In this document: positions 34,588 through 55,723 of the stretch, piece by piece
Layout of the letters: each line of letters starts with the position of its first letter
Position numbering within the stretch: position 1 is the first letter of the stretch
Assembly: GCA_038870595.1 (NCBI GenBank)
Contig: JAVZJU010000002.1
Span: forward strand, 1 to 64,000
From: Candidatus Bathyarchaeia archaeon
GTDB taxonomy: Archaea; Thermoproteota; Bathyarchaeia; Bathyarchaeales; Bathycorpusculaceae
Direction of reading: 5' to 3'
Length of the DNA stretch: 64,000 nt
Made by a program: the position numbers and the translations under genes
The notes under the pieces: model-generated
Told to the model about the DNA's origin: nothing
Databases searched by the model: none
Seen by the model: the letters and a program-made list of their open reading frames with translations, nothing else

Positions 34588-35109
34588 TTGCGCGTCAAAA
34601 ACAACATGTTAAGCCTCGACTCAACGGACATCAAAATATTGGAAATGCTGCAAGAGGACGCCAGACAAACCTATATGACTATTGGCAAACGCTTAGGAAT
34701 AGCCCACTCCACAGTCTACGACAGAATAAAGCGGATGGAGCAGCACGGCATAATAAAAAAGTACACAGCCCTCATAGACTCTGAAAAAGCTGGAGCCAAA
34801 AACGTAACAGCTATAATGACAATAATCACAGACCCAAAAGAAAGCGAGAAAGTAGCTGAAAAACTCTGCAGGGTTCCCCAAGTCGCAGAAGTCTACACAT
34901 CCCTATCAGAAGAACTCCAAATAATAGCAAAAGTCATAGCCGAAAACCAGGAAAGTCTCCACGAGTTTATCGCCAGCACAGTTGCTCCGCTTCCGGGAGT
35001 TCTGCGAATCCGCACATCCATAATTACAAAAAAGTTTAAGGAAACCCAACCTTTAATAATAAATGACCCGAAAAAGTTAACACCAACAGAGGACAAAAAT
35101 AGACAATAA
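34588..35109 (+). CDS. Lrp/AsnC family transcriptional regulator (full length: HTH + RAM)
   Basis: LDSTDIKILEMLQEDARQTYMTIGKRLGIAHSTVYDRIKRMEQHGIIKKY, then a RAM domain. Confidence 0.8.
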   Translation: MRVKNNMLSLDSTDIKILEMLQEDARQTYMTIGKRLGIAHSTVYDRIKRMEQHGIIKKYTALIDSEKAGAKNVTAIMTIITDPKESEKVAEKLCRVPQVAEVYTSLSEELQIIAKVIAENQESLHEFIASTVAPLPGVLRIRTSIITKKFKETQPLIINDPKKLTPTEDKNRQ

Positions 35110-39552: not shown

Positions 39553-40833
39553 GTGAAAACATTGAGGCAAAAAACTCTTCCAAAAACATTCTTAACTTTT
39601 ATGATTTTAGCATCAGCGTTCGCCTATGCACTCTCAACCACCATTTCTTCAAGCGGAAAGTCCATTTCTAGCAATGAAATTCGGGTGGGTTCAGGCGAAT
39701 CCATTCAAGAGGCAATAAACAACGCCAACCCCGGAGACACCATCATAGTTTCGCAAGGAACCTATAAGCAGTGGGATATAGTTGTTAACAAGACTTTAAA
39801 GATTGTTGGAGAAAACCCCGAAAACACCATTCTAGATGGAAATGGTACTGCACAGTACATTTTTCATGTAATTGCAAATAATGTATTTATAGGAAACTTT
39901 ACCCTTAAAGGCATGAACCCCGACCCGAACACTTATAGTTATGCCCTTGGAATAGCCAATACTTTGAACGTCACAGCAAAAAATCTCATAATCACCGATA
40001 CAGTAATTGGAATCGATGTGCAATCGTCAAACTTCAGTAAAGTGTTAAACAATCAATTTAGGGAATGCAAAGGTTGGGCTTTACGCTTACACAAAGCAGG
40101 TTGCAATAATACCATCGTGAGCAACAATTTTGAAAATAATACCATAGCCATAACCTTTGCAGATGCTTCAAGCAAATTTAACAAAATTTACCATAACAAC
40201 TTTATCAACAACACGAGGAATGTTGTATCATATTCAATAAATTATTTTGATAACGGTTATCCTTCCGGCGGAAACTACTGGAGTAATCATACCAAAACAG
40301 ACTTGAAGCACGGAGTCTATCAAAACGAAAGTGGCAGCGACGGCATAGTGGACGAAGTTTATTATGAATGGGGGGCAACAGATAACTATCCTTTAGTGTA
40401 CCCGCTTACAATCCTTAAAATCATCGTTGACGAGAAAATATTTGAGATTGAAGTTTCAACAAATTCAAGTTTAAACTCCTACACGTTTAACTTTGAAATG
40501 AAAAGCTTAAAACTGTTCTTAATGGGTGGAGAAGACGCTGTTGGAGCTTGTAGAATCTCGATTCCTAAGGAGCTTTTATCATGTGACCAGCTATCACAGT
40601 GGAATATTACGCTATCTAGCAATGGACAATTGAGCTTCTTGGAATATTTAGCCTTAGAGGATGCTGAAACAACATATCTGTACTTTACGTACAATCAATC
40701 AGACAGTTTCGAAATAGAGGTGATAGGGATAAATGCCGTACCAGAATTTCCGTCAATAGCATCAATAATTATTTTACTTGTGGCAGCCACAGCGATTATT
40801 CTGTTTAAAAGCAAATTTTCTAAAAAGCGTTAA
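39553..40833 (+). CDS. Secreted parallel beta-helix (NosD-like) protein with PEF-CTERM-like anchor
   Basis: Signal peptide and PbH1-like repeats. C-terminus NAVPEFPSIASIIILLVAATAIILF-KSKFSKKR. Confidence 0.7.
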   Translation: MKTLRQKTLPKTFLTFMILASAFAYALSTTISSSGKSISSNEIRVGSGESIQEAINNANPGDTIIVSQGTYKQWDIVVNKTLKIVGENPENTILDGNGTAQYIFHVIANNVFIGNFTLKGMNPDPNTYSYALGIANTLNVTAKNLIITDTVIGIDVQSSNFSKVLNNQFRECKGWALRLHKAGCNNTIVSNNFENNTIAITFADASSKFNKIYHNNFINNTRNVVSYSINYFDNGYPSGGNYWSNHTKTDLKHGVYQNESGSDGIVDEVYYEWGATDNYPLVYPLTILKIIVDEKIFEIEVSTNSSLNSYTFNFEMKSLKLFLMGGEDAVGACRISIPKELLSCDQLSQWNITLSSNGQLSFLEYLALEDAETTYLYFTYNQSDSFEIEVIGINAVPEFPSIASIIILLVAATAIILFKSKFSKKR

Positions 40834-41619: not shown

Positions 41620-43671
41620 TTAAATTTTTGATGTTTTGAAAACTTTTTTCTTGGGAAAAGTTTTTGTTGCAGCTATTATGAGCGACGCCATCAACAGAGC
41701 CATCAGTAGCAGGTGGATTTGCTCAGACACCATACCTGACCCTTGAACTTTTACGACTGCATCGTAGTCTTCGAATACAAATTCTACGTAAATGTAAGTG
41801 TTTGTGTTGTCAGAGGTTATTTGGGGTGTGACTTCTACACCGTCTATGTAAACTTTCCAGCTGTCCCATATGAGATCTTTTGGAAGGGTTATGTTTACAT
41901 AAGCTGATGTGCCCGGAGCACCAGTGACTTGTAGAAATTCAATCCATGCGCCTGCAATGTTGTGGTTTATTGCGTTTGCAATTACTGATGTATTAGTGTG
42001 GGTTAAGATTGTGAAACCGAGCAGTTGATGGGCTACGGGGGAGACCAGCTTGTAAGTGTAAGTGGCGTTTTCTATCGTGAATGGTATGTCATTTTCTGCA
42101 GCGTTTAGTATAAATGTGTCCTCATACGGGTTGACCAAGCCCACTGTACATGTAGATTGAGGTGAAAGTGGTTGACGAATTATTTTTAGTTTTACTTGGC
42201 ATAGGACACCTGTGCCGTTAAACGTCCAATAGGGGTCGTTTATGTACGTGCAACCCCAGCTTACATAACCTGGACCAACATCTAGTGACGGAGTTATCAT
42301 TGCCCTGTTGGCACCAGCGAAAACGTGGTCTGATGGAAGAGATATTTCTGTGAAGTTTAGGAGTGTTGGGTCCCAGGTTAGATGGATCTGCCAGTTCTGC
42401 AAGTCCTCAACATCAACAACAGTGACATTGAAGGTTATTTCATCTCCCACTTTAGTCATGTTTGAGTAGTAGGTTGTTACTCCGTTGGCTGCCGTGACTC
42501 TGATGATGGCTGTGGGTGTTACCACTCTGACCGTGGCTGTTTTTTCTAATGTGGTACCTGCTGAGTCTGTCACCTTAACTTTTACATATTCAACGCCTTC
42601 GGTTGAGAAGGTGAAGGTTGCGGATGTCTGGTTTTCGTACGCCGTTTCTTCTATGTCGTTTCGGAACCATTGTATTTTATAAGGCGGCACTCCGCCTGAA
42701 ATTGTGGCAGTGAATGTTTTACTTCCACCAACATTAATGATAACCGTAGCTGGCATCAATTGTAATGATAATTCTGCAAGTTTCAGATAGGATGAAGCAT
42801 TTTTGCTAACCCCGACATAGTCGGTTACTTGGACTGTCACTTTATGAAGACCTGCCACTGTTATTGGGTAGCATTCCCAAGAAGTTTGGTTAAAGGCTTC
42901 TGTGACTTCTATTTCCGTGCCATTTGGCCATTGGAAGAACCATTGATATGTGTAGGGCAATGCTCCGTAAAGTGCTGTGGCTGTAAAGGTTTTGGTTTCG
43001 CCATAGTTCACTTTTATTGGGCTTGTATACGTGCCTAAGGGACTTATAGAAACCGTCAAATCGTCAATGTATGTGTAGGTTGCATCTTCCACCGTGAAGA
43101 GTATGTCGTATCCCGGTCCATTTAGTAGGAACGTGCTGTATCCGATTTCTGCTAAGGTGAGGTTGCAGGTTGCTGGGAAGGATGGTGGGGTTAAGATTTT
43201 TAATTTCACTTGGCATAGGACGCCTGTTCCGTTAAACGTCCAATAGGGGTCATTGATATATGTGCAGCCCCACATAACGTAGCCTGGACCAACATCTGGT
43301 GGTGGGGTTATCATAGATCTTGCTCCCGGAGTGCCTGGGGGTTGGATCGCTGAATCAATTGGGGCGAAAACGTGATCCCTAGGCAGATAAATGCTCGAGT
43401 ACTCAAGGAGTACTGGGTCCCAGGTTAGTTTAATCTGCCAGTTCTGCAAGTCCTCAACATCAACAACAGTTATGTTAACGATGAACGTGTCTCCTGGCTT
43501 AGTAGTGTTGGCGTAAAATGTGTTATTAACAGGTAAGACCACAATTTTTGTTCCGTCCTGCGCACTTGTTTGGGGCGTGAAGAGTGGAATCATGCCTAGC
43601 ATCAGAAAAGCAGAGATTAACATTGGAAAAACTTTCCTTATACTTTTATGTAAGTTCATCTGAATTTTCAC
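41620..43671 (-). CDS. Membrane-anchored scaffoldin-like protein with two cohesin-like modules
   Basis: Signal peptide. Two ~150-aa modules: PGDTFIVNITVVDVEDLQNWQIKLTWDPVLLEY...WGCTYINDPYWTFNGTGVLCQVKLKI, repeated at aa ~390-520. Two Ig-like PPYxYQWF domains. C-terminal TM plus KKK. Confidence 0.65.
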   Translation of the reverse strand: MKIQMNLHKSIRKVFPMLISAFLMLGMIPLFTPQTSAQDGTKIVVLPVNNTFYANTTKPGDTFIVNITVVDVEDLQNWQIKLTWDPVLLEYSSIYLPRDHVFAPIDSAIQPPGTPGARSMITPPPDVGPGYVMWGCTYINDPYWTFNGTGVLCQVKLKILTPPSFPATCNLTLAEIGYSTFLLNGPGYDILFTVEDATYTYIDDLTVSISPLGTYTSPIKVNYGETKTFTATALYGALPYTYQWFFQWPNGTEIEVTEAFNQTSWECYPITVAGLHKVTVQVTDYVGVSKNASSYLKLAELSLQLMPATVIINVGGSKTFTATISGGVPPYKIQWFRNDIEETAYENQTSATFTFSTEGVEYVKVKVTDSAGTTLEKTATVRVVTPTAIIRVTAANGVTTYYSNMTKVGDEITFNVTVVDVEDLQNWQIHLTWDPTLLNFTEISLPSDHVFAGANRAMITPSLDVGPGYVSWGCTYINDPYWTFNGTGVLCQVKLKIIRQPLSPQSTCTVGLVNPYEDTFILNAAENDIPFTIENATYTYKLVSPVAHQLLGFTILTHTNTSVIANAINHNIAGAWIEFLQVTGAPGTSAYVNITLPKDLIWDSWKVYIDGVEVTPQITSDNTNTYIYVEFVFEDYDAVVKVQGSGMVSEQIHLLLMALLMASLIIAATKTFPKKKVFKTSKI

Positions 43672-43726: not shown

Positions 43727-45397
43727 CTATATAACTCTGTATCGCTCTTTTGGACTAGGCTCCTTTTCAGGTCTCTTCTTGTACCAGACAACAGTAACCC
43801 CGAGGGCTCCAAAAAAGGCTATAGCTGCATATAATTCCCAGCCTGTGCCGGATTCGCTTTGAGCTTGTATTACGGTTACATGTATGTCATGTGATATTGA
43901 TGAGTATAGTCCTTCGTCGTCGAAGACTATGAGGGTGACTGTATAGTCTCCTCCTTGTCCAGTATATGTAAATGTCGCTACTAGTTCTGTTGGCTTGGTT
44001 ATGTTGTAGGCTTGCATTTGGGTTTCTTCCATTTCTCCGTAGAAGTCCCATATGGCGTATACGATTTCTCCGTCTTCATCATACGTGTATCTTTCAGTTT
44101 CTGTGCCATATGCGTTGAAGATGACTTCTTGGTCTGGCATAGGTTGCAGTGGTGTCCATGTAAAGTTGACTATTGGGCGCTGTCCCACAAAGATTATTTT
44201 GCTTGTTGAATTGTAAAGTCCGTCGTTGTCAAAGGCTGTTAGGGTGACGTTGTAAAGGCTGTTTTTGGAGAGGGTGAACGTTACGTTTTCATCCGTCGTG
44301 GTTTCGTTCCAGAACTCAACGGGTACATAGTTTATTTTTACGCCTTTTGGCTTGAATTGTAGGCGGGTTAAGTTCCATAAGTATTGGGTGATGGTTCCAT
44401 CTGGGTCAAAGCTTCCTGTCGCGTTAAGCGTTATTGTTGCATTAGCCCCTATTGGTACGTAGGGGTTTTCAGGGTCGTAAGTGAAGCTTATCTGTGGGGG
44501 AATTCCAACAAAAATTACTTGCGTTTTTGAACTGTTTTGGTTTTCGTTGTCTGTCACCGTAAGGTTGACGTACTTTATTCCGTATGTTGTATATGTGTGA
44601 TTGACGCTTTGCTGGTTTGTTGTTGTGTTTGTTCCGTCTCCAAAGTCCCAAGTGTAGTTTGCAATATAGCCGTCTGGGTCGTAGCTTCCAGAAGCGTCAA
44701 AGGTCACTGGTTGGTTTGGTTTTGGGTATTGGGGCTGCCATGTGAAAGCCGCTATTGGCGGAGATTTAGCCCCATAAACTGTGACTTGGAAGGATTCGGA
44801 TGTAAACGGAATTTCAATTGAATCTGAGTTCCATAAGAAGGAGTCATCGTCATAGTCTGGGCTTCCTGTTGGAATTATGCTCAGCGTGAAGGTTCCTATT
44901 TTTATGGCTGTGAAGTTTATTTGGCAAAGTATTGCCTGAGAAGTTGTTACGGCGTCGTTCCAGTTGAGGAGGCTTGCGCCTAGAAAGACGTAGCCATAGC
45001 CTGGAGGAGCCTTTCGGGGTTGTTGATTATAGATCTCCGGTTGTACCTGCTGTATTTTTTTGTTGTAGAATACGAAGTTTGGGTTGTTTGTGGGTAGCCA
45101 TGCACCTGTACATTTAACTTTGCTATATTCGAAGCTTATTGCCACTTGAAAAGTAACTATGTTTTGTGTTAAACCCGTAAGTGTAACATTCACGGTGAAT
45201 GAATAGCCCCCTAACGGGATGGGAGTGGATTCGTTGCCCAATATGACGCTGTTCTCTCCAGTTTTTGAATCGATAATCCGGATTGTCCTCTCTTGAGCTT
45301 CTGCAAAAAATCTTAATTGGCTGGAAACGGTTAAAAGCATAATTTGACCTAATATCAAAATAATGAGAGCTTTGTTAAGTAATTTCACCATTTTCAC
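43727..45397 (-). CDS. Membrane-anchored surface protein: divergent cohesin-like N-domain + PKD domains + C-terminal TM
   Basis: N-terminal TM. FTVNVTLTGLTQNIVTFQVAISFEY...ILCQINFTAIK resembles the cohesin-like pattern. ANYTWDFGDGTNTTTNQQSVNHT PKD. C-terminal TM plus KKRPEK. Paralog of 52962..54506. Confidence 0.6.
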   Translation of the reverse strand: MKMVKLLNKALIILILGQIMLLTVSSQLRFFAEAQERTIRIIDSKTGENSVILGNESTPIPLGGYSFTVNVTLTGLTQNIVTFQVAISFEYSKVKCTGAWLPTNNPNFVFYNKKIQQVQPEIYNQQPRKAPPGYGYVFLGASLLNWNDAVTTSQAILCQINFTAIKIGTFTLSIIPTGSPDYDDDSFLWNSDSIEIPFTSESFQVTVYGAKSPPIAAFTWQPQYPKPNQPVTFDASGSYDPDGYIANYTWDFGDGTNTTTNQQSVNHTYTTYGIKYVNLTVTDNENQNSSKTQVIFVGIPPQISFTYDPENPYVPIGANATITLNATGSFDPDGTITQYLWNLTRLQFKPKGVKINYVPVEFWNETTTDENVTFTLSKNSLYNVTLTAFDNDGLYNSTSKIIFVGQRPIVNFTWTPLQPMPDQEVIFNAYGTETERYTYDEDGEIVYAIWDFYGEMEETQMQAYNITKPTELVATFTYTGQGGDYTVTLIVFDDEGLYSSISHDIHVTVIQAQSESGTGWELYAAIAFFGALGVTVVWYKKRPEKEPSPKERYRVI

Positions 45398-45495: not shown

Positions 45496-47685
45496 TTAGC
45501 AGCGTTTCATAAAGTTCATGCAGCATGTACCAATGTCTCGAAGGTCGATTCTCCCATCCCTGTTCAAGTCATAGTAGTGGTCCCACCTTGGATCACCTGG
45601 TTTTGCCCCGTAGCGGCTGCATACGTCGTTAATGTCCCGCATATCCACGACTCCATCGCCGTTAACGTCGCCCATGATTCTTATTTTGACTTTACCATCT
45701 TCAAGGGTGTTGTCTGACAAGTTGAATTCGTATGGTACTGGTCCAGCCAGAGCTGAGATTGTGTAATTGTGACAGTATGGAACATTCTTGGTGTCCCAAC
45801 TTATGATTATTGTTAATTCTTCGTTAGGCGGCAAGTCGTTAACTGTGACTGTTGGTCCGAGATTGCTGTCATAGTAGATTTTCACTTCAAAAGTTTCTGT
45901 TATGTTTCCCTTGTTTTTAACCGTCACAGTGATGTTAACTATCCAGCCTTGATAAGCGATATTCAAATCCGTGGACAAAGAGGTGACTGCTACATCCCTT
46001 ATTAATCCTATAAATATTCCGTGGTGGACTTCATGAGTTACTGGCTCATTATTGATGTTTAGAAGCAGCGTATCGGTGAGGTTTATGGGGCTTACACCCA
46101 AAGCTACAACGACGAACTCGACCCTCATTACGGGTTTAGGCTCGTATGTTGTTATTCCTTGGCGATATGTTATGTTTGCCCAGATATAGCCAGCCTCATC
46201 GTCTATCAAAATTTTCTTGAGAGGCGTTTGTCCGGATATGGGTAAAACTGCCACATTAATCTCCAGTATTACTGATGGAATATATGTCAAATTGAATATG
46301 CATGTTTTAAGGTTTTCAACATCATCCACCGTCACATTTATTGTAAATGTTGTTCCAGGCAAGTATTCCGGACCGCTGACTTCGCTTGGGTCAATTGCCA
46401 GCGTAGCGAGTAGAACATTATTGAAATATCCGTCTTCACTTGTCGCCGGAATAGGATTGCCTAACGGGTCTCGCAAATCAACATCAGCAAGTTTCAGGAT
46501 CGTCCGCCCTAAGTCTAAGACTTGAAATGTCACCGTTGCAAGTTTTCCGTTTCCCTCCGCCACATCTGATGGGGAAGTTAGTTGGCAACTCATGTAAACA
46601 CGACCATGAGTGGAGTTGTAATCATTCTCGATTGTAAAGGTGAAGCTTGTTGGACCTATCGATGATAAGAAGTCTCCTTCATACACGTCTGTGGCTGATA
46701 GTAGAGTTCTGTTAAAGAATATTGCTGCTTCCCAAGAATGGAGGGTTACAGCATCCCTTATCAAAAGGCTTATGTTAAATGCTTTCCCAGGCGTAAGGGA
46801 CGGGTCAACAATACTATGCGGGTCTATATAAACAACAGGTCCACCAGTCCTTCGGACGATTGCCGTGGCGTTAGCTTTCGCACTTGCCTTGTCTGTAACT
46901 TTCACTGTTACTTTATGGTCGCCCAACAATGTTATTGGCGGAGTTGTCCAAACCGTTGAGTTTTCAGCGTTTTTGTCCTCTATTTCCGTGCCATTAGGAT
47001 ATCTAAAATACCATTGATACTTGTAGGGGGTTGGACCGTTTTTGGCTGTTGCCGTGAAAGTTACTTGACCGCCTGGATCAACTACAACAGGTCCAGGAGG
47101 GCTTAAAGTAACTTTCAGCTCATCAATGTACGTGTAGGTTGCATCTTCCACCGTGAAGGGTATGTCGTATCCAGGTCCATTTATTAAGAACGTGTTGTAT
47201 CCGATTTCTGCCAAGGCGAGGTTGCATGTTGCTGGGAAGGACGGAGGCGATAGGATTTTCAGTTTTACTTGGCATAGAGTCCCTGTGCCGTTAAATGTCC
47301 AGTATGGCTCATTAATATATGTGCAGCCCCAAATCACGTAGCCGGGGCCTGTTTCTGGCGGTGGAGTTATCATTGCTTTTCCAGAACCGGCGAAGACGTG
47401 GTCTGGTGGAAGGGAAACCGACACGTATGCCAGTAGTGCTGGATCCCATGTTAATTTTATTTGCCAATTTTGCAAGTCAACAACGTCAACAACAGTTATG
47501 TTAACTGTGAATGTGGATCCTGGAAGGGTCACATTTGCATAAAATTTGTTTGTGGCGGGCAAAACCTTCAATTTTGTGCTGCCAGGTCCAGATTTTACTG
47601 GGATTGCTGGTAACAAGGCAAGAGTCAATGTTAAAAGAATTAAAGCTGTTGAGAGCTTGGCTCCCCTTTTAGCATTTAGAAGCAT
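45496..47685 (-). CDS. Adaptor scaffoldin-like protein: three cohesin-like modules + CARDB-like domain + C-terminal type-I-like dockerin
   Basis: Signal peptide. Cohesin-like 1 (GSTFTVNITVVDVVDLQNWQIKLTWDPALL...WGCTYINEPYWTFNGTG), 2 (PGKAFNISLLIRDAVTLHSWEAAIFF) and 3 (PGTTFTINVTVDDVENLKTCIFNLTY). Dockerin DVNGDGVVDMRD...DLNRDGRIDLRD. Confidence 0.7.
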   Translation of the reverse strand: MLLNAKRGAKLSTALILLTLTLALLPAIPVKSGPGSTKLKVLPATNKFYANVTLPGSTFTVNITVVDVVDLQNWQIKLTWDPALLAYVSVSLPPDHVFAGSGKAMITPPPETGPGYVIWGCTYINEPYWTFNGTGTLCQVKLKILSPPSFPATCNLALAEIGYNTFLINGPGYDIPFTVEDATYTYIDELKVTLSPPGPVVVDPGGQVTFTATAKNGPTPYKYQWYFRYPNGTEIEDKNAENSTVWTTPPITLLGDHKVTVKVTDKASAKANATAIVRRTGGPVVYIDPHSIVDPSLTPGKAFNISLLIRDAVTLHSWEAAIFFNRTLLSATDVYEGDFLSSIGPTSFTFTIENDYNSTHGRVYMSCQLTSPSDVAEGNGKLATVTFQVLDLGRTILKLADVDLRDPLGNPIPATSEDGYFNNVLLATLAIDPSEVSGPEYLPGTTFTINVTVDDVENLKTCIFNLTYIPSVILEINVAVLPISGQTPLKKILIDDEAGYIWANITYRQGITTYEPKPVMRVEFVVVALGVSPINLTDTLLLNINNEPVTHEVHHGIFIGLIRDVAVTSLSTDLNIAYQGWIVNITVTVKNKGNITETFEVKIYYDSNLGPTVTVNDLPPNEELTIIISWDTKNVPYCHNYTISALAGPVPYEFNLSDNTLEDGKVKIRIMGDVNGDGVVDMRDINDVCSRYGAKPGDPRWDHYYDLNRDGRIDLRDIGTCCMNFMKRC

Positions 47686-47767: not shown

Positions 47768-50700
47768 CTAGTAATATTTGGCAGTCTTGCCATAGTTGCC
47801 ACAGGCGATGCCGATGTCACGCATATCTACTTTGCCATCATTATTCACATCTTTATTGGGGTCCCAGTTGGGCTTTGACGGGTTTGTTCCGAACTTGTTA
47901 CATATCGCCCCCACATCGCGCATATCCACTTTGCCCTCTGGAACTCCTTGAGCTATGCTTGTTACATCTCCTGAGATTACTATTAGAACCGAACATTTGA
48001 TGTAAAGGTTGTTTGAGATGTTGCCTTCTCCTAAAACCGGCACTGCATAAGCACTAACAGTATAATTTCCATATGCCAAGTTTGTTGTGTCCCAAGATAA
48101 ACTGGTAATTATAGATTGCCCAGGCAGTATCGTTTGGATAAATTTTGTTCCTATGGTCTGGTTGGCATACGTGTTATTGGACCAGTAAACGATTATTTGA
48201 ACATTTGACTCTGTAAAGTTACCGTTATTTTTTGTCGTTACGTAAATTAGGGTTCCATAATCTCTACCTATATATTTTTTCATGGGAATTGGTTTACTTA
48301 GGTTCACGTTTGGTGTGCTAGCTGTAACATTTTCTATACTTATGTCAGCGTATTCTACTCTGATTTGGCAGGATTTACTATTGTCAGACGGGTTTTCATC
48401 CACAATTGGTGGTTGGAGAGTGGCGCTAACAGATATTATGTAATTTCCAGCAGACAGACTTGTCGTGTCTAAATAGATTGTGAGGGTTTGCTGTTTTCCC
48501 CTTCCAAGGTTTATAGAAGTTGTGTAGAAGTTTGTGGTATTGTATGATGCTGTAACACTTATTGTTTCAGTGAATGATCCTTTATTCCATATAGTTGCGT
48601 TGATTGTTGCTGTTTCACCTTTTTTGACCGGCGTCTTTAGAGGTATGACTTTTAAGACGGCTACATCATGGTTTGAGCCTTGTATCGCATAGAGTTTGCC
48701 ATCTTTGGAGGTTACGTATATGATGTCATTTAGTACAGCTGGTGATGAGTCAATTATTCCTCCAGTTTGGTAGCTCCACCAAATTTCGCCACTTTCTTCT
48801 TCTATTGCGTAAAGCCTTCCTGTTGTCGTTCCCACTATAACTTTGCGTTCGGCCACTAGAGGAGATGACCATTTTATTGGTCCAATTTCTTTACTCCAAA
48901 GTAAGTTGCCAGTCAACGCGTTAAGGGCATATAGTTTACCGTCTGTTGAGCCTACAAAAACTGTATTGTCAGCTATCGCTGGTGAAGAGTATATCTCGCT
49001 GTTCGTCGTTAAGTTCCATAAAATTGTGCCAGTTTGGGCGTCTAAAGCATAGATTTTCTTGTCTCTTGAACCTGTGAAAACTCTATCGTTGGCAAACGAT
49101 GGGGATGAGTAGATACCGACTCCTGGTGCTAGGTTTTTCCTCCATAGAATTCCCCCAGTTATTTCATTTAATGCGTATATACTGCCATTTTGGGTTGCCA
49201 CGAACACCTTGCCGCTTGCTGCAGCGGGAGACGTGTAGACCGCTCCGTCGAGGGTGCTTGTCCAGATAGTTGTTCCGTTTATATAAAAGGCGTAGACTTT
49301 TCCATCTGTGGAACCGATAAATACTTTATTACCATAGATGACTGGAGAGGAATAGACTGGACCTCCAGTTGTTATGCTATATTTTACGCTACCATTTGTT
49401 GCATTTACTGCATATACAAGTCCATTTTCTGATCCTATGAAGAGTAAGTTGTCTGTGTAGGCTGGGGAGGAGTAGATTTTGTATCCTGGGGCTGGTGTTG
49501 TTTTCCATATGAGCGCTCCGTTTGTTGCATTAAAAGCGTATAGTGTTCCGTTTATTGACCCTATGAAAACTTTATTTCCAACAATTGCGGGGGAGGATTG
49601 CATCCATTGTTCGGTGCTTGTTGACCCTATTGTTTTTTGCCATTTGGTTGAGTTAGCTGTCGATGCTAACGAGGAGGATGAGCCTTTGTGTTTGGGGTCG
49701 TGGCGGAACATGGGCCAAGCTTCTGTTACTATTACTAGTCTTTCAGTTGAGTTGTATATTCCTTTATTGTTGGTTACTGTTAATTTGACCGTGTAGTATC
49801 CGCCCATGTCGTATATGTGGGTAACTATCTGGCCTTTCGCTGTGGTTCCGTCGCCAAATTGCCATGTATAGTCTATGATGGTTCCGGTTGGGTCGTAACT
49901 TGCTGAGCCGTCGAAGGTGACTGTTTGGCAGACCATTGGATTACTTGGAGAATATGTAAACTGTGGAACGGGCCCTAGAACTAAGAAGCTTTTTATGTCA
50001 ATCGCTGTTGAAATTTGATATTCGGTTGTTGCATATATCACATATTTGTCAGCAGGTATATCCGTTGCTGGGAGTTTAAATGTTACATTAAAGTATTGGG
50101 GTTGCGGTGGCATTGAGGGAGTTGTTGTGCTTATATAGAATTTTGCCTTTTTTTCTGGACAATATGGGGCTCCTAGATTTTTTGGGTAGTCCTTGAATAG
50201 GCTTACTGATACTTGTGCTTCGCCAGTTGGCGCGTGACTTGGTATTGGCATCGAGGAAAGAAGCTTTACGGTTTGACCTCCTTCAATTGTAAAACCTGAC
50301 GTAAAGAATGCTGTTAGGGGTGTGTTATCAGAGCATTGCACATAAACGGCTATTAATACATACCTGTTTACTACGTCGAAGTTTTTTATTGTTATATTGA
50401 GGTAGGCCGTGGTTCCACGGCTAAAAAGGTTCTTTGGTGTTCCTTGTGAGTCGCAGGTGTACATGTCTAAGATTTGTACGCGCCAGTATCTGCCTGAAAC
50501 GTCGCCTGTTTCAACCGTTCTTAAGACAAAGGGGTTTCCGTTTGGGAAGTCTACCTGGATGGCAGCTATTGTGTCGGTTTTTAGTGCTCCGTCCAAGGTT
50601 ACGTTTCCTGTTATTATTACTGTTTCTCCTGCGTTGTAGGTTGGTTTGTTTGTTGTTATGTTTATGTCTAGTATGTAGGCTTTTGCTTGTTGTGTTAATA

Positions 50701-50794
50701 TGCTTATGTGAAGGGTTAGAATTATTAATATTAAGAACGTTGTGATTGTGAGTTTTTTGATTTGGTTTTTTGGGGATGAATTCATAAGCTTCAC
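47768..50794 (-). CDS. Secreted PKD + PQQ-like beta-propeller + CARDB-like protein with C-terminal dockerin
   Basis: YTWQFGDGTTAKG...KLTVTNNKG PKD. Eight or more repeats of the G.LYA.NA.NG...W type (PQQ-like blades). Dockerin GKVDMRD...DVNNDGKVDMRD. Confidence 0.7.
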   Translation of the reverse strand: MKLMNSSPKNQIKKLTITTFLILIILTLHISILTQQAKAYILDINITTNKPTYNAGETVIITGNVTLDGALKTDTIAAIQVDFPNGNPFVLRTVETGDVSGRYWRVQILDMYTCDSQGTPKNLFSRGTTAYLNITIKNFDVVNRYVLIAVYVQCSDNTPLTAFFTSGFTIEGGQTVKLLSSMPIPSHAPTGEAQVSVSLFKDYPKNLGAPYCPEKKAKFYISTTTPSMPPQPQYFNVTFKLPATDIPADKYVIYATTEYQISTAIDIKSFLVLGPVPQFTYSPSNPMVCQTVTFDGSASYDPTGTIIDYTWQFGDGTTAKGQIVTHIYDMGGYYTVKLTVTNNKGIYNSTERLVIVTEAWPMFRHDPKHKGSSSSLASTANSTKWQKTIGSTSTEQWMQSSPAIVGNKVFIGSINGTLYAFNATNGALIWKTTPAPGYKIYSSPAYTDNLLFIGSENGLVYAVNATNGSVKYSITTGGPVYSSPVIYGNKVFIGSTDGKVYAFYINGTTIWTSTLDGAVYTSPAAASGKVFVATQNGSIYALNEITGGILWRKNLAPGVGIYSSPSFANDRVFTGSRDKKIYALDAQTGTILWNLTTNSEIYSSPAIADNTVFVGSTDGKLYALNALTGNLLWSKEIGPIKWSSPLVAERKVIVGTTTGRLYAIEEESGEIWWSYQTGGIIDSSPAVLNDIIYVTSKDGKLYAIQGSNHDVAVLKVIPLKTPVKKGETATINATIWNKGSFTETISVTASYNTTNFYTTSINLGRGKQQTLTIYLDTTSLSAGNYIISVSATLQPPIVDENPSDNSKSCQIRVEYADISIENVTASTPNVNLSKPIPMKKYIGRDYGTLIYVTTKNNGNFTESNVQIIVYWSNNTYANQTIGTKFIQTILPGQSIITSLSWDTTNLAYGNYTVSAYAVPVLGEGNISNNLYIKCSVLIVISGDVTSIAQGVPEGKVDMRDVGAICNKFGTNPSKPNWDPNKDVNNDGKVDMRDIGIACGNYGKTAKYY

Positions 50795-50880: not shown

Positions 50881-52839
50881 TTATGGTTTGACTATGTAGA
50901 AGTCTATGGTGTTGGTTACTTCTGGGCAGTAGGGTACTCCGCCGTTCCATGGGAATTTGTCGAAGGCGTTGGCGAAGACTTTTCCTTTGCCTACTACGGC
51001 GTTGGTTGGTAGTGGTATGACTGGTTCCCATGGGTCATATGTCTTGAAGGGTGGTGTTTCGCATGCTAGGTAGTCGTAGTATATGTATTCGCCCCATCCT
51101 ACCTCTGTTTGCAGGTAGTCTGAGCCTATGAAGAATCCTAGTTCGTCGTAGACGGTTACTGTTAGGGTTACGTTGAGCTTTTGCATGCTGTAGGTTCCAT
51201 ATATTACTGTGAAGTCTAATGGGTCTCCGCCTGTCTTGCGTTGCACGTACTGCGTGTGTTTGGGTTCAACGCTTAAGACGTCCACCTTCCACCATACCCA
51301 GAAGCCTAAGGTGTCATTAACTTTTTGTTGGGCTACTTCAACTGTGGCTATTACGCGCCATTTGCCGAAGATTTCGTCTTCTGGGTTTTCGCATGGCCAT
51401 GGTATCCTGAAGGATACATGGGCTATGCCGTTTTGGTCTGTTGTTGCTTCTCTATATATGTCGTAGCCGTTGTGAATTATGTGGAAGCCTACAAGCTTCT
51501 GTTGTACTGGATACTCATTGTATTCTACTTTCGCGAATAGGTCAACAAGCTCTTGTGGCGCGAACATGTCGCTGGGCATGTGTGGGCCTTGTCCGCCATA
51601 TGGGCTTGGGTATTGCGTGTACAGGTCTATTTTGAGACCGAGAATCCTCATTGGCGCCCTGTAGTGGCAGTCCACCGTCGAGCTTGATATGGCCATCATG
51701 TACTGGTTTAATGCGTATGTGTCTTCGTCGAATTTGAAGTCTATAAACTCGATCCAAGTCCAATCTTCTTTGGGTGATATTGTTTCGTAGATGGCTTTGA
51801 AGTAAACCGTCATCAGCCTTGCTCCGTCAGGTCCAACACTTACGAATGGCGGGTGATATGGTTCGGCAGGTGGACTGTCTGGCAATAGTATGGCGCCAAA
51901 CATTGAGTAGTTGTAGCCGTCTGGAATCGGTGTTAATGGCGGTGGCCTGTTATGCTGGTTTATGTCTGCTACATACATGACTCCGCCTGGGTAGTATTGG
52001 AATGCCTCTAGAAGTGTTCCATTCGCATAGTACATGCCCGTGGGACCTGGGTCTGGCACTATGAAGGTTGTGTTCCACATGAGGCTGAACTGGAAGCCTA
52101 TTATCTCCCAGCCTGCAGCAACATTTTTAACCCATATTTCAAGTCCGAAGACGTCGCCTATCTTTTCTGGTTTGCAGACGGCTGGCTTAATGAAGAATGT
52201 TGGGTAGTAGGGTGGAGCAACCCACTCATACTTGTAGTGGGCATCAACCCCTGTGAAGGTAATGTCATAGCCAGCACCGTTCAATAGGAATGTGCTTTCG
52301 CCCTCCCCTGCAATTTGAATGTCGCACTCCAAAACCTTTGGTGAAATTTGAGAAACTCCTTTTTTAACCTTCAATTCCAGCCTGAAGAGGGTTCCAGTGC
52401 CGTTGAAAGTCCAGTAGGGGTCATTGATGTATGTGCAACCCCAAACAAACATGCCTGTTCCTATTGTCGGGGTTGGAGTTATCATCGACCTTGCAGCTCC
52501 GGCGAAAACATGGTCTGCTGGAAGCTCATGACCAGCGTACTCAAGGAGCGATCCATCCCATGTTACGTTAACTTGCCACAGTTGCAGGTCGGTTACATCC
52601 CTAACAGTGATGTTTACCCAGAAAGTACCCCCGACGCCGATCATCTCTGATGTGAAGTAGAACAGATGATCTCCGTCTGTAGGATCAACAACCTCAACAG
52701 TTGTCCCGGGCTCAGCTTTACCAGAGGGTACAAAGACCAGCAGTGTGCTTAATGTCAGTAGAACAGCCAATGTGATACTAGAAAGTTTGCTAAATTTCCT
52801 TTCCATTTTCTCCCTTCTCCTTCTATTCAGCAATATCAA
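50881..52839 (-). CDS. Secreted protein with two cohesin-like modules and a large uncharacterised domain
   Basis: Signal peptide (likely start MERKF). GGTFWVNITVRDVTDLQLWQVNVTWDGSLLEY...WGCTYINDPYWTFNGTGTLF, and a second module GDVFGLEIWVKNVAAGWEIIGFQFSLMW. No TM and no dockerin. Confidence 0.6.
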   Translation of the reverse strand: MILLNRRRREKMERKFSKLSSITLAVLLTLSTLLVFVPSGKAEPGTTVEVVDPTDGDHLFYFTSEMIGVGGTFWVNITVRDVTDLQLWQVNVTWDGSLLEYAGHELPADHVFAGAARSMITPTPTIGTGMFVWGCTYINDPYWTFNGTGTLFRLELKVKKGVSQISPKVLECDIQIAGEGESTFLLNGAGYDITFTGVDAHYKYEWVAPPYYPTFFIKPAVCKPEKIGDVFGLEIWVKNVAAGWEIIGFQFSLMWNTTFIVPDPGPTGMYYANGTLLEAFQYYPGGVMYVADINQHNRPPPLTPIPDGYNYSMFGAILLPDSPPAEPYHPPFVSVGPDGARLMTVYFKAIYETISPKEDWTWIEFIDFKFDEDTYALNQYMMAISSSTVDCHYRAPMRILGLKIDLYTQYPSPYGGQGPHMPSDMFAPQELVDLFAKVEYNEYPVQQKLVGFHIIHNGYDIYREATTDQNGIAHVSFRIPWPCENPEDEIFGKWRVIATVEVAQQKVNDTLGFWVWWKVDVLSVEPKHTQYVQRKTGGDPLDFTVIYGTYSMQKLNVTLTVTVYDELGFFIGSDYLQTEVGWGEYIYYDYLACETPPFKTYDPWEPVIPLPTNAVVGKGKVFANAFDKFPWNGGVPYCPEVTNTIDFYIVKP

Positions 52840-52961: not shown

Positions 52962-54506
52962 GTGCAAAAAAGGCGGACATCAACAATAATAATCATTGCG
53001 GCAATCCTATCTATTGGAATCCTGTCCCAGTCGCTAAATCTTCAATCCTTAGCACAAACACGTGTAATAAAGATTGCTGATATGAAAACAGGCTCAAATT
53101 TCATAACCCTCGGAAGTCAAAGTAATCCAATACCTTTAGGCGGATACCAATTCACGGTTAACGTCACCCTAGAAGGCCTAACAAACAACCTTTACGTTTA
53201 TCAAATCGCAGTTAAATTTGACAAAGACAAAATTCGCTGCACATCCGCGTGGATAAACAGAAACGACCCAAATTTTGTCTTCTACTCCCACAAAAGCCTC
53301 ACCTACATTCCACCCGCTGCCATAGACAACACTGAAGGATACGTGGTTTTAGGCGCCTCATTGATAGGCGACCGCCAAGTAGACGTTTCAAAGGGGCTGT
53401 TATGCCAAATAAACTTCACAGCCATAAAAAAGGGCGAAACACAAATTGAACTCATTCCAACTGGTTACGAACCCTACGACACATTTTTAGGATACTTTGA
53501 AGACGATAATTTAAGGTACATATCCTTCACAACAGAGAACTTTAACTGTATAGTTCAAGCATCACAAACTCCACCATTAGCTTCATTCACATTTAACCCA
53601 AAAAACCCCGAAGCAAACCAACCAGTGACCTTTGACGCTTCTGGAAGCTACGACCCAGACGGCTATATTGCAAACTACACTTGGGACTTTGGAGACGGAA
53701 CAAACACAACAACAAACCAGCAAAGCGTCAATCACACATTCACATCGAACGGCGCCTACAACGTCACGCTGACAGTTTACGATAATAGCACCCGCAGCAG
53801 TTCAACACGCGAAGAAGTGCAGGTGGGACGCCTCCCTATCGTTAAATTTACATATCAACCCGCCCAAATACAACCGTTCCAACCAGTTACATTCAACGCC
53901 GCCGAAAGCCAAGACCCCGATGGAACAATAGCCAGATACGTCTGGAATTTTGGAGACGGCAACACGACAACCACTTACACCCATCAAATAACACACATCT
54001 TCAATAGCAGAGGCGCTTTCAGAGTTAATTTAACAGTTTATGATAATGAAGGACTACACAACTCAACGGCTAAAGAAATTTTTGTTGGAAAACCCCCATC
54101 TCCAAACTTCACCTACACCACTCCGCGAGCCGTCGAAGACTACTTTATCGTAACCTTTAATGCATCACAAAGCCAAGCTGGAGAAGAAGATGGCTATATT
54201 GTTTCCTACGTGTGGGATTTCGACGACCACATCGGCATAGTAGAAACACAATCTCCAATAATAGAACACATTTACATGGAGGGAGACTATGAGGTAAAAC
54301 TCACAGTTTACGACAACAACGGATTACACAATTCAATCACAAAAACTATAAAAGTTAAGGTAGAGAAAACGAAAGAAACGAATGGAACAGATATAACAAT
54401 CTACCTCGTCGCAGCTGCGGCCGCGATATTAGTTATTATTGTGGTGTTAAAACTGGTTAGAAAAAAATCCACATCTATAAAACAAAAGAAGAAAAAGAGA
54501 AAGTAA
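52962..54506 (+). CDS. Membrane-anchored surface protein: cohesin-like N-domain + 3-4 PKD domains + C-terminal TM/KKKKRK (paralog of 43727..45397)
   Basis: N-terminal TM. YQFTVNVTLEGLTNNLYVYQIAVKFD...LLCQINFTAIKKG. WDFGDG / WNFGDGN PKD motifs. C-terminal TM. Confidence 0.6.
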   Translation: MQKRRTSTIIIIAAILSIGILSQSLNLQSLAQTRVIKIADMKTGSNFITLGSQSNPIPLGGYQFTVNVTLEGLTNNLYVYQIAVKFDKDKIRCTSAWINRNDPNFVFYSHKSLTYIPPAAIDNTEGYVVLGASLIGDRQVDVSKGLLCQINFTAIKKGETQIELIPTGYEPYDTFLGYFEDDNLRYISFTTENFNCIVQASQTPPLASFTFNPKNPEANQPVTFDASGSYDPDGYIANYTWDFGDGTNTTTNQQSVNHTFTSNGAYNVTLTVYDNSTRSSSTREEVQVGRLPIVKFTYQPAQIQPFQPVTFNAAESQDPDGTIARYVWNFGDGNTTTTYTHQITHIFNSRGAFRVNLTVYDNEGLHNSTAKEIFVGKPPSPNFTYTTPRAVEDYFIVTFNASQSQAGEEDGYIVSYVWDFDDHIGIVETQSPIIEHIYMEGDYEVKLTVYDNNGLHNSITKTIKVKVEKTKETNGTDITIYLVAAAAAILVIIVVLKLVRKKSTSIKQKKKKRK

Positions 54507-54538: not shown

Positions 54539-55723
54539 CTATTTGCTTACTGCGTAGCAAGCAACAAAATGCCCGTCACCAACATCAACCAGCTTAGGTT
54601 CTGAACTCTTACAAACATCCATGGCTTTGGGACATCTCGGATGGAATCTACAACCGGGAGGGGGATTAACAGGACTCGGAACCTCACCAGTAATGGGTGG
54701 ACGCTCCCTTCTCTTTGTTGGATCTGGAATTGGAATAGCTGCAAACAACGCTTGTGCATAAGGATGCAGAGGCTCTTTGTAGAGCGTTTCAGTTTTTGCT
54801 AGCTCCACAATTTTACCAAGATACATAACAGCTACTCGGCGACTTATACATTCAACAACGCTTAAGTCGTGGCTTACAAACATGTAGGTGATGCCTAGCC
54901 TCTTTTGAAGATCTTGGAATAAGTCTAGAAGTTGGGCTCTAACTGAAACATCGACAGATGATGTGGGCTCATCTAAAACAATGAATGCAGGACGTGTGAT
55001 AATTGCCCTTGCAACGGCAATCCTTTGCCTTTGACCTCCGCTGAACTCATGTGGATACCTATAAAGATGCTTTTCAGTTAAGCCCACGTTTTCAAGCGCC
55101 TCAACAACCATATCATAGACTTTTCGTCCAGTGGCTATTCCCTGTGCAACGATTGGCTCAGCGACTATGTCCTTAACAAGCATTCTGGGATCCAGCGATG
55201 TTGTTGGGTCCTGGTAGACTATTTGCATAAATCTCCTCAACTTTCTCAATGATGAGAATGAGGCTTTCGTTAAGTCGTATTGCCTATGACGGGGGATTTT
55301 GTCCCGCAAATAGGAAATTAGTTCCTGTTCTTTCATGTTCCTAACTTTGGTAACTTCATCTTTGGATAGATATTTCATGCCATAGCTTTTTATAGCATTC
55401 TTAAACTTTTCAGAAACCGCTTTAGCGCGCTTTGGATCTGAAGTTTTTGCTTCCTCCTCAAGCCTTTCAATTTCCAGAAATTCGTAATTGGGTGCATTAA
55501 ATATTATTTTTCCATCGTTTGGTTTGTAAAGCCTTAGGATAGTTTTTCCCAGCGTTGTTTTTCCACATCCAGATTCTCCCACTACTCCGAAGGTTTCGCC
55601 TTTAAATATTTTGAAGGACACTCCGTCAACTGCTTTAACTTCGGCTACTTTCCTTTTCAAAACGCCGCCGAGGATGGGGAAGTATTTTTTAAGATTCTCA
55701 ATTTCTAGAAGGGTAGTTTCCAC
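54539..55723 (-). CDS. Oligopeptide/dipeptide ABC transporter ATPase (OppF/DppF-like)
   Basis: GESGCGKTT Walker A, LSGGQRQR signature, C-terminal oligopeptide-type extension with [12 protein letters not shown]. Confidence 0.85.

Follow-up and report, generated by a model that had tools for sequence, protein, structure and literature searches.

Domain organisation and predicted secretion of protein T

The stretch analysed here, 64,000 nucleotides from a Candidatus Bathyarchaeia archaeon and referred to below as the window, encodes 8 cohesins in 5 proteins within ~25 kb. The cohesins fall into four sequence classes and are accompanied by three Pfam-supported dockerins and one dockerin-like module. 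Our target is the protein termed T, with the following features:

45496..47685 (-): T, an ORF with ATG start that spans exactly these positions, 729 aa
47587..47685 (-): predicted signal peptide, aa 1-33, a basic n-region and a hydrophobic segment (aa 9-33)
47122..47583 (-): cohesin 1 (M1), aa 35-188; Pfam Cohesin is the sole match; class 1
46846..47121 (-): PKD/Ig-like insert, aa 189-280, confined to the closest T orthologues
46414..46845 (-): cohesin 2 (M2), aa 281-424; Pfam Cohesin is the top match; a separate sequence class
46000..46413 (-): cohesin 3 (M3), aa 425-562; Pfam Cohesin is the sole match; a separate sequence class
45691..45999 (-): CARDB beta-sandwich module, aa 563-665, directly preceding the dockerin; Pfam CARDB 31.1 bits for the isolated segment
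45499..45690 (-): dockerin, aa 666-729; Pfam Dockerin_1 (PF00404) 35.5 bits for the isolated segment, cut-off 22.9

As evidenced by Pfam and the structure model, T has the order signal peptide, cohesin 1, PKD/Ig, cohesin 2, cohesin 3, CARDB and dockerin. With the whole protein as query, Cohesin (PF00963) scored 39.5 bits (cut-off 24.1), Dockerin_1 29.8 bits (cut-off 22.9) and CARDB 25.4 bits (cut-off 22.7), while PKD at 22.5 bits fell just short of its cut-off of 23.5. Neither a CBM nor a GH family was found in T by the Pfam and NCBIfam scans, and NCBIfam gave nothing useful for T or for its neighbours A, B and D. This is the layout of an adaptor scaffoldin, a non-catalytic, secreted protein that combines more than one cohesin with a dockerin. 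A sequence-only reading had described T as three cohesins plus a dockerin, which is correct, but it had overlooked the PKD/Ig insert (aa 189-280) and the CARDB module (aa 563-665). The orthologue P0001 is full-length, of equal length and 86% identical.

We infer that T is secreted, since its N-terminus carries a basic and hydrophobic stretch, no other membrane-spanning segment was found in the protein, and N-glycosylation sequons are enriched. Residues 9-23 form a low-confidence helix in the structure model, and a second hydrophobic 19-mer (aa 524-542) falls inside the beta-strands of cohesin 3. The 17 sequons compare with 6.8 +/- 2.4 expected, a 2.5-fold enrichment, and the count was reached in 0 of 500 shuffles; A and B show the enrichment too, whereas cytoplasmic controls do not.

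The cohesin modules

Scored as isolated segments against Pfam Cohesin, M1, M2 and M3 yielded 20.1, 15.1 and 18.1 bits, each under the cut-off. The family profiles, searched against the PDB, reached solved cohesins first, and for all three modules the best match was 3l8q, at 4.7e-13 for M1, 6.5e-6 for M2 and 6.8e-4 for M3; M1 also matched type II cohesins at ~1e-6. Each pair of modules is homologous from end to end (hhalign E 4e-17, 5e-14 and 2e-19, with 4e-17 for M1 and M2). The proposal of three cohesin-like modules is borne out by these searches, and the outcome that would have spoken against it, a grouping with CARDB or invasin, did not occur: Cohesin was the top family and structures of neither kind were among the PDB matches listed for the three profiles.

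Structure prediction agrees with this assignment. The nine-stranded beta-sandwich (jelly-roll) of the cohesin fold is present in T, and 10-residue blocks of M2 have pLDDT values mostly of 76-96. A Foldseek search with the full model of T matched the CipA CohI9-X-DocII chains 4fl4_C (6.2e-12) and 3kcp_A (8.2e-11), but the remainder of the list consisted mostly of generic multi-Ig proteins (complement, integrins, ciliary proteins), and M3 was therefore modelled alone. With this model, of pLDDT 96.4, 50 of the 50 matches listed were cohesins, headed by 2xdh with TM 0.77/0.78. Judged by profile and fold, the modules prove to be three bona fide cohesins of three different sequence classes, for which Ca2+-dependent dockerin binding is predicted.

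Sequence clustering of the modules, as suggested in the earlier reading, placed M1 in class 1 with the cohesins of the neighbouring proteins A and D, and M2 and M3 each in a class of its own. Cohesin 1 of T is 78% identical to cohesin 1 of A and 57% to the other cohesin of that protein. The adjacent PKD/Ig insert reached sub-threshold Pfam scores for PKD (22.5 bits) and Ig_3 (22.9 bits), matched the Ig-like structure 9d7z at 3.7e-5, and was modelled poorly (pLDDT mostly 29-60). It is collinear with the first Ig domain of A, and the neighbouring cohesin has 75% nucleotide identity to that of A. In the majority of the family, ~40 members, cohesin 1 belongs to another subclass with a mean identity of 36% to that of T. 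These relationships suggest a domain swap that would have put an A-type cohesin and Ig domain into a single sub-lineage, comprising T and P0001-P0004.

The CARDB-dockerin region

The two Ca-binding loops quoted in the sequence-only reading are present in the dockerin of T as DVNGDGVVDMRD (aa 673-684, 45634..45669) and DLNRDGRIDLRD (aa 706-717, 45535..45570), and the Dockerin_1 score over its cut-off upholds the assignment. Both loops are canonical, with D1, N3, D5, D9 and D12, at a spacing of 33 residues, and each is followed in the model by a helix (682-689 and 715-723, pLDDT ~93). The repeats are nearly symmetric (M/L-R-D-I). Residues G672, D673, D684, D706 and D717 are invariant across 44 family members, and dockerins of known structure were matched with 2y3n_B at 1e-5 and 4u3s_B at 6e-5.

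Neighbouring genes

The cohesin and dockerin proteins around T and the adjacent importer are the following:

41620..43671 (-): protein A, signal peptide-cohesin-Ig-Ig-cohesin-C-terminal domain-TM; membrane-anchored, two cohesins
43063..43557 and 42046..42516 (-): cohesins of A, aa 39-203 and aa 386-542; family HMM 220.8 and 218.6 bits
43727..45397 (-): protein B, signal peptide, divergent class-4 cohesin, 3 PKD (Pfam), apparent C-terminal hydrophobic anchor
44774..45295 (-): cohesin of B, aa 35-208; family HMM 45.0 bits
47768..50794 (-): protein C, signal peptide, N-terminal domain, PKD, PQQ/BamB-like beta-propeller, 2 CARDB, dockerin (Pfam)
47780..47989 (-): dockerin of C; Dockerin_1 25.3 bits for the isolated C-terminus
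50881..52839 (-): protein D, signal peptide, class-1 cohesin, conserved C-terminal domain of ~440 aa
52222..52710 (-): cohesin of D, aa 44-206; family HMM 201.1 bits
52962..54506 (+): protein E, signal peptide, class-4 cohesin, 3 PKD (Pfam), C-terminal TM with basic tail
53058..53552 (+): cohesin of E, aa 33-197; family HMM 52.4 bits
54539..58903 (-): Opp/Dpp-type ABC importer, predicted for peptides or oligosaccharides (Pfam)
57863..58903 and 56895..57860 (-): importer permeases (Pfam)
55726..56889 and 54539..55723 (-): importer ATPases with oligo_HPY (Pfam)
59046..61673 (-): family-5 substrate-binding protein (SBP), Pfam SBP_bac_5 120.9 bits; signal peptide only
59058..59291 (-): C-terminal divergent dockerin-like module of the SBP; family dockerin HMM 37.7 bits
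63760..64000 (-): dockerin at the C-terminus of an ORF truncated by the window end, motifs at 63799..63933; Dockerin_1 36.8 bits

The genes for D, C, T, B and A lie on the same strand with gaps of 55-98 bp. Predicted topology gives A and E a signal peptide as well as a C-terminal TM helix, and T, C, D and the SBP the signal peptide alone. A had been read from the sequence as a membrane-anchored two-cohesin protein, and this holds: besides the family HMM scores, its two cohesin segments reach 20.3 and 18.3 bits with Pfam Cohesin, and a signal peptide at the N-terminus is complemented by a C-terminal TM segment (aa 647-673, 41653..41733) and a basic tail. No SLH or LPXTG family was found in A with Pfam and NCBIfam, as expected for an archaeon. 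The C-terminus of B, hydrophobic AAIAFFGALGVTVVW with a basic tail, was read by eye and lies under the hydropathy threshold. In D we found neither a TM segment nor a dockerin; 7 of 9 members of its family match Pfam Cohesin, and the C-terminal ~440 aa gave no match, the family profile finding only the N-terminal cohesin in PDB and Pfam.

Besides T, three gene products of the window carry a dockerin or dockerin-like module: the propeller protein C, the SBP_bac_5 protein and the ORF cut by the window end. C is 39% identical to the CARDB-dockerin region of T and is a candidate cargo, so that the suggestion of cohesins for cargo is matched by dockerin-bearing candidates encoded alongside T. The SBP module contains a duplicated (D/N)MRDIG...KHFG and is not recognised by Pfam Dockerin_1; duplicated (D/N)MRD(I/V)G segments are common to all four dockerins of the window.

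Other genes in the window encode a NosD-like beta-helix protein, large PKD/Flg_new_2 surface proteins and archaeal RNA polymerase. A scan for promoters and terminators of the bacterial type, inapplicable to an archaeon, gave 29 versus 23.7 and 11 versus 11.9 in shuffles, without enrichment, and was set aside.

Conservation in Bathyarchaeia

The closest homologues of T are found in Candidatus Bathyarchaeia. In a scan of GTDB genomes with the dockerin peptide pattern only, the longer matches among those listed were likewise from Bathyarchaeia. The cluster, consisting of the Opp-type importer with its dockerin-like SBP, D, T and membrane-anchored cohesin proteins, is conserved across this group. 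The importer adjoins cohesin genes in 7 of 8 informative loci; in L005, which at 28% identity is the most distant of the relatives analysed, no ABC importer lies within 10 kb. Of 9 loci, 8 have D upstream of T, adjacent or with one dockerin-protein gene in between, and 6 have cohesin proteins that are TM-anchored or of A/B type on the downstream side. Dockerin-like modules on the SBP, as detected by the dockerin HMM, recur in five loci (L001, L003, L004, L027 and L028).

The families of T and A are neighbours in the window and in L001, L003, L030 and L005, but the two-cohesin anchor A is missing beside the T gene in L027, L028 and L029; three single-cohesin TM-anchored proteins replace it in L027, and L028 and L029 have no anchor beside the gene. 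The dockerin-bearing gene is that of propeller protein C here, and encodes PKD-dockerin proteins or an S8 protease in relatives, in one case an S8 protease of 2,200 aa with its own cohesin and dockerin.

This pattern bears on the reading of T as an adhesin, in which the cohesin-fold, PKD and CARDB sandwiches would attach directly to polymers or partner cells, and the dockerin alone would engage in cohesin-dockerin contact. CARDB and PKD domains are characteristic of surface and adhesion proteins in archaea (PMC5244752), roles in cell-cell contact have also been proposed for ANME in the account of PMC9012536, and the NosD-like and PKD/Flg_new_2 neighbours fit such a role. Nevertheless, 3-4 dockerins and 8 cohesins are co-encoded and co-conserved, for which cognate pairs are the simplest explanation, and solved archaeal cohesin-dockerin pairs bind specifically according to work cited in PMC9012536. 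We consider direct adhesion unlikely.

Relation to known cohesin-dockerin systems

Bacterial cellulosomes are the setting in which cohesin-dockerin pairs are best known; their role elsewhere, notably in archaea, is described as open (PMC5244752, PMC9012536). A cellulosomal reading of the T cluster was considered and rejected for want of any CAZyme or CBM: across the 64-kb window and the flanks of 9 relatives, neither the cluster nor the dockerin carriers yielded a glycoside hydrolase or a CBM. In the window, T has neither the CAZyme partners nor the CBM of a cellulosomal scaffoldin, and A ends in a TM helix and basic tail instead of being anchored by SLH or sortase. The logic of CipA/ScaA invoked in the sequence-only reading thus stands for the scaffoldin architecture, but not for a cellulosome.

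The likeness to CipA and to Acetivibrio cellulolyticus, whose adaptor scaffoldin (3l8q, a type II cohesin dyad) was the best profile match of the T modules, lies in the multiple cohesins, the C-terminal dockerin after a beta-sandwich module and a cell-bound cohesin partner encoded nearby. T differs by the lack of a CBM, by dockerins that are not on glycoside hydrolases and by an identity of only 13-18%; the dockerin follows a CARDB module in T but an X module in CipA, and the anchor is a C-terminal TM helix in A versus SLH repeats or sortase in bacterial cellulosomes. T is related to bacterial scaffoldins but archaeal and not cellulosomal, and the type of system is not new.

ANME archaea possess scaffoldin-like proteins with one dockerin and up to five cohesins, as well as dockerin-tagged NikA/OppA SBPs, a system for which surface display was proposed, as reported by Chadwick et al. 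2022 (PMC9012536). The T cluster shares with them the archaeal, non-cellulosomal setting, the protein with multiple cohesins and a dockerin, and SBPs of the Opp/Nik family as dockerin carriers (PMC9012536), the dockerin of our SBP being recognised by the family HMM and not by Pfam. The ANME belong to Halobacterota lineages, however, and Bathyarchaeia to another phylum; the likeness stated here is one of architecture. In Bathyarchaeia the scaffold gene is moreover syntenic with an importer operon, D and TM-anchored cohesins, a cluster not described for ANME in the portion of PMC9012536 on which we draw.

The non-cellulosomal cohesin of Archaeoglobus fulgidus (2xdh) has 16% identity and was not reached by the T sequence profiles. 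The A. fulgidus proteins contain single cohesin and dockerin modules and are not known to form a three-cohesin scaffold. The bindosome of Sulfolobus offers a functional analogy only, as an archaeal surface organisation of ABC-transporter binding proteins, with no homology implied. It was reportedly described by Zolghadr et al. as a surface assembly of sugar-binding proteins, and is said to depend on pilin-like signal peptides of class III and on an assembly system resembling that of type IV pili, not on cohesin-dockerin pairs.

Mode of assembly

We think it rather likely that this Bathyarchaeia archaeon builds a cohesin-dockerin surface assembly that is not a cellulosome, and that T, secreted and probably N-glycosylated, serves in it as a non-catalytic scaffold subunit. 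The membrane-anchored cohesins of A, B and E would provide points of attachment to the cell surface, and the dockerin of T would dock onto one class of them. The cohesins of T could in turn display dockerin proteins, namely the SBP and propeller protein C, and in relatives PKD-dockerin proteins or the S8 protease. The outcome would be a more abundant and further-reaching surface display of nutrient-capturing proteins over the ABC permease. Note that adjacency of genes in the T cluster is no proof of physical interaction, and the pairings named here are candidates.

The sequence-only reading had suggested that the T dockerin could bind A, giving two tiers. In the strict form of this arrangement, the T dockerin would bind specifically to the two cohesins of A and cargo would sit on the T cohesins, as is the case for the pairs ScaB/ScaC in Acetivibrio cellulolyticus and CipA/SdbA in C. 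thermocellum. The architecture and topology of both proteins point to it, as do the adjacency of the two families in the window and four further loci, the resemblance of the CARDB-dockerin dyad to the anchoring X-dockerin dyad of CipA (Foldseek 4fl4_C and 3kcp_A), and the proximity in sequence of the M1 class to type II (anchoring) cohesins. Against it stand the 78% identity of T cohesin 1 to that of A, with cohesin 1 and Ig collinear between the two proteins at 75% nucleotide identity, and the three loci where no A-type protein lies beside T. As T cohesin 1 belongs to the class of A's cohesins, a simple hierarchy, with a dockerin specificity set apart from that of the protein's own cohesins, is not evident. 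In this T would depart from bacterial adaptor scaffoldins and their clean hierarchy, and the shared class argues, on the strength of the sequence grouping, against a clean separation. A dockerin that binds A would therefore probably bind T itself, and D too. Strict two-tier assembly seems to us possible, but doubtful.

The presence of an anchor-class cohesin together with a dockerin in T is also the reason for proposing that T polymerises, its dockerin binding cohesin 1 of the next T, head-to-tail from a membrane anchor. The resulting extended fibres or mesh would display cohesins 2 and 3. The common class of T cohesin 1 with the cohesins of A and D, the restriction of the A-type cohesin and Ig swap to T and P0001-P0004, and the near-symmetric dockerin repeats, which fit dual binding, are consistent with this. 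It presupposes, however, a putative recognition of class-1 cohesins by the T dockerin, and most family members, ~40, carry the different cohesin 1 subclass. Such self-assembly is improbable in our view.

Implications for nutrient uptake

Bathyarchaeia are uncultured and globally abundant. Within the scaffold assembly that we favour, the importer SBP appears, from its dockerin-like module, to be a client of the cohesins. We tentatively propose that the cluster may form a nutrient-harvesting complex in which the anchored cohesins and T would concentrate the importer's dockerin-tagged SBP at the cell surface and hold the propeller protein, or in a relative the S8 protease. If this were true, capture or degradation of extracellular polymers would be physically coupled to uptake, and for the first time a scaffoldin system outside cellulosomes would be given a physiological role, in a highly abundant archaeal lineage of sediments. 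With 8 cohesins of four classes, membrane anchors and an adjacent importer, the locus is a compact and conserved test case for how an archaeal surface assembly is wired, and for whether nutrient uptake by Bathyarchaeia is organised by scaffolds of this kind. For protein engineering, its modules may also be a source of new orthogonal cohesin-dockerin pairs.

Architecture of the probable scaffold protein

The sequence-only reading had described a gene at 45496..47685 encoding three cohesin-like modules and a dockerin. This proved right: the ORF occupies exactly these coordinates on the minus strand, and both dockerin strings quoted there were found in the product, at aa 673-684 and 706-717. A PKD/Ig and a CARDB module had been missed, and the complete arrangement of the protein, here termed T, is as follows.

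45496..47685, minus strand: T, ORF of 729 aa with an ATG start
aa 1-33: predicted signal peptide
aa 35-188: cohesin 1
aa 189-280: PKD/Ig module
aa 281-424: cohesin 2
aa 425-562: cohesin 3
aa 563-665: CARDB module
aa 666-729: dockerin

The start codon is supported by the orthologue P0001, which shares 86% identity and is of equal length. In whole-protein Pfam searches Cohesin (39.5 bits, cut-off 24.1), Dockerin_1 (29.8 bits, cut-off 22.9) and CARDB (25.4 bits, cut-off 22.7) were recognized, and PKD remained marginally below its cut-off (22.5 bits, cut-off 23.5). The predicted topology comprises a signal peptide only; a hydrophobic 19-mer at aa 524-542 falls inside the beta-strands of cohesin 3.

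A grouping of the cohesin-like modules with CARDB or invasin families had been named as the outcome that would speak against a scaffoldin, and it was not observed, as Pfam segments and PDB profiles gave cohesin and the modules proved related to one another. Scanned singly, modules 1 to 3 (M1, M2 and M3) had Cohesin as the sole or top Pfam family, with sub-cut-off scores of 20.1, 15.1 and 18.1 bits, and none matched a CARDB or invasin family. One profile per module, built on 17-19 diverse homologues and searched against all PDB sequences, returned a cellulosomal cohesin as top match every time (M1, 4.7e-13; M2, 6.5e-6; M3, 6.8e-4), namely 3l8q, the A. cellulolyticus cohesin dyad, followed for M1 by a run of type II cohesins at about 1e-6. 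In profile-profile comparison the three modules were mutually homologous over their full length (E-values of 4e-17, 5e-14 and 2e-19).

Both dockerin repeats carry the canonical calcium-loop ligands D1, N3, D5, D9 and D12 followed by a helix; they are near-symmetric (VDMRDI and IDLRDI), and G672, D673, D684, D706 and D717 are invariant among 44 family members. The CARDB-dockerin dyad recurs in the neighbouring protein C (39% identical across 155 aa), the CARDB residue Cys638 (45772..45774) and the C-terminal Cys729 (45499..45501) occur together in 40 of the 44 members and are both missing in three, and Foldseek aligned the full T model with the CipA CohI9-X-DocII chains 4fl4_C and 3kcp_A at 6e-12 to 8e-11. 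By analogy, these three findings suggest an X-dockerin-like unit, in which a Cys638-Cys729 disulfide or metal clasp, reminiscent of X-dockerin dyads, possibly ties the dockerin C-terminus to the preceding beta-sandwich.

Cohesins and dockerins in the window

HMMs derived from the modules of the T family were searched against every ORF of the window and detected eight cohesin modules in five proteins, as well as four dockerins.

41620..43671: A, two cohesin modules
43727..45397: B, one cohesin module
45496..47685, minus strand: T, three cohesin modules and a dockerin
47768..50794: C, dockerin (Pfam 25.3 bits and family HMM)
50881..52839, minus strand: D, one cohesin module
52962..54506, plus strand: E, one cohesin module
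59046..61673, minus strand: SBP, family-5 ABC substrate-binding protein of Opp/Dpp/Nik type, with a C-terminal divergent dockerin-like module at 59058..59291
63760..>64000, minus strand: ORF running off the window end, with a canonical dockerin in its C-terminal 80 aa (36.8 bits in Pfam)

The dockerin-like tail of SBP is not recognized by Pfam; it scored 37.7 bits with the family HMM and shows a visible duplicated (D/N)MRDIG...KHFG motif, and the orthologues in L001, L003, L004, L027 and L028, five of the related loci, also possess such a module. A signal peptide and, at the C-terminus, a TM segment with a basic tail are seen in both A and E; on the strength of this topology and its two HMM-detected cohesins, the description of A as a membrane-anchored two-cohesin protein holds. 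In B, a signal peptide is accompanied by a C-terminal hydrophobic stretch, AAIAFFGALGVTVVW, and a basic tail, both seen in the sequence, the stretch itself falling below the hydropathy threshold. C, D and SBP have a signal peptide only, and for SBP neither topology prediction nor the C-terminal 70 residues as read gave a C-terminal TM anchor. T, A and B contain about 2.5 times the shuffled number of N-glycosylation sequons, and the observed count was reached in 0 of 500 shuffles; the same comparison showed no enrichment in SBP or in the cytoplasmic controls RpoA and methylmalonyl-CoA mutase. The C-terminal ~440 aa of D are strongly conserved (73% mean column identity among 9 homologues), and no match to them was found in Pfam, NCBIfam or PDB sequences.

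Cohesin classes and dockerin specificity

Sequence clustering, proposed earlier for predicting specificity, divided the eight cohesins by pairwise identity into four classes.

Cohesin classes in the window (protein letter and module number)
Class 1: A1, A2, T1 and D1, mutual identity 46-78%
Class 2: T2 alone
Class 3: T3 alone
Class 4: B1 and E1, mutual identity 51%

Cohesin 1 of T is 78% identical to cohesin 1 of A at the amino acid level, and its mean identity to cohesin 1 of family members that have no PKD module is only 36%. Together with its Ig module (46846..47583, minus strand) it is collinear with cohesin 1 and Ig1 of A (42772..43557, minus strand), with 75% nucleotide identity over 458 nt. 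As the PKD insert is moreover restricted to the four closest of 102 homologues, these data point to a domain swap by which the sub-lineage of T would have gained an anchor-type cohesin and Ig module from the adjacent paralogue A.

The class-1 cohesins of T and D also bear on the two-tier assembly that had been proposed, with the T dockerin plugging into A. If it does recognize the cohesins of A, it would probably recognize D and T itself as well, and this would hint at chained molecules instead of a clean hierarchy of two tiers. The other option is that the T dockerin would target another cohesin class.

Conservation and gene neighbourhood

The order Coh1-Coh2-Coh3-CARDB-Doc was found in about 45 of the 102 homologues and the Coh-Ig-Ig-Coh architecture of A in about 30. 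The close homologues with a named source and the listed genome matches reaching beyond the dockerin are nearly all from Candidatus Bathyarchaeia MAGs, the exception being P0064, a partial 437-aa match labelled Patescibacteria group bacterium. Archaeal RNA polymerase genes are present in the window.

Comparison of nine loci, the window and eight relatives with 28-64% identity, revealed a recurrent cluster: SBP_bac_5 with its dockerin-like tail, two permeases, two ATPases with oligo_HPY, D, a variable dockerin protein, T, membrane-anchored cohesin proteins, small ORFs, a NosD-like beta-helix protein and a large PKD/Flg_new_2 protein. The variable slot holds C in the window and a ~325-aa protein or a ~520-aa PKD-dockerin protein elsewhere, and the anchor slot mostly contains B and A, with L027 having three TM proteins of one cohesin each. 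Of the 8 informative loci, 7 have an adjacent ABC importer, whose genes are Pfam-confirmed in the window. Eight of the nine loci carry D upstream of T, seven of them with D placed between T and the ABC operon; in the eighth, L029, the contig ends just upstream of D. Downstream of T, TM-anchored or A/B-type cohesin proteins follow at six of the nine loci. D-C-T-B-A of the window are co-stranded with intergenic gaps of 55-98 bp.

Several further genes were noted at these loci. A ~2,200-aa protein (L028:14834-21433, minus strand) combines Peptidase_S8 (subtilisin) and CARDB domains with a dockerin (67 bits) and a cohesin of class 1 (131 bits), an enzyme that is at once dockerin client and cohesin provider. 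The NosD-like surface protein of the window (39553..40833, plus strand) terminates with VPEF followed by a hydrophobic stretch and a basic tail, with a sub-threshold match to the PEF-CTERM archaeal sorting signal TIGR03024 (18.3 bits, cut-off 23); the gene has a matching position in L003, L004 and L030, and the L005 copy bears a dockerin. An Lrp/AsnC-family regulator (34588..35109, plus strand) borders the surface-protein cluster, as does an AsnC-type regulator at the corresponding edge in L004.

A probable non-cellulosomal surface assembly

The comparison of T with CipA/ScaA adaptor scaffoldins stood with respect to scaffoldin logic and failed with respect to the cellulosome. Pfam and NCBIfam searches found no glycoside hydrolase or carbohydrate-binding module in T or the dockerin carriers of the window, and the anchors of the cluster are TM helices and not SLH or sortase signals; a cellulosome was therefore rejected. 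We consider it reasonably likely that T is secreted and serves as a scaffold subunit in a surface assembly of non-cellulosomal type that displays proteins with dockerins; the binding protein of the neighbouring Opp-type importer is probably among them. That the cohesin-dockerin complex would harvest nutrients, coupling extracellular capture with uptake, is a tentative and rather doubtful extension.

Cohesins and dockerins have been known in archaea since the A. fulgidus genome. A search of full-text literature for Bathyarchaeota or Bathyarchaeia with dockerin yielded incidental co-mentions only, and no description was found there of a conserved gene order uniting scaffold and anchors with a transporter whose binding protein is dockerin-tagged. 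According to Chadwick et al. 2022 (PMC9012536), multi-cohesin scaffoldins were long thought missing from archaea, some ANME proteins combine one dockerin with as many as five cohesins (see also PMC5244752), and common dockerin carriers include NikA/OppA-type binding proteins. Given these ANME proteins, T is of a kind already known, here found in a different archaeal phylum.

As a separate observation, the ORF at 18540..22361 (minus strand, 1,273 aa) contains Rpb1 domains 1-5, so that A' and A'' of the largest RNA polymerase subunit are fused into one unsplit chain. This subunit is split in most archaea, a one-piece form being known from Nitrososphaeria (Thaumarchaeota).
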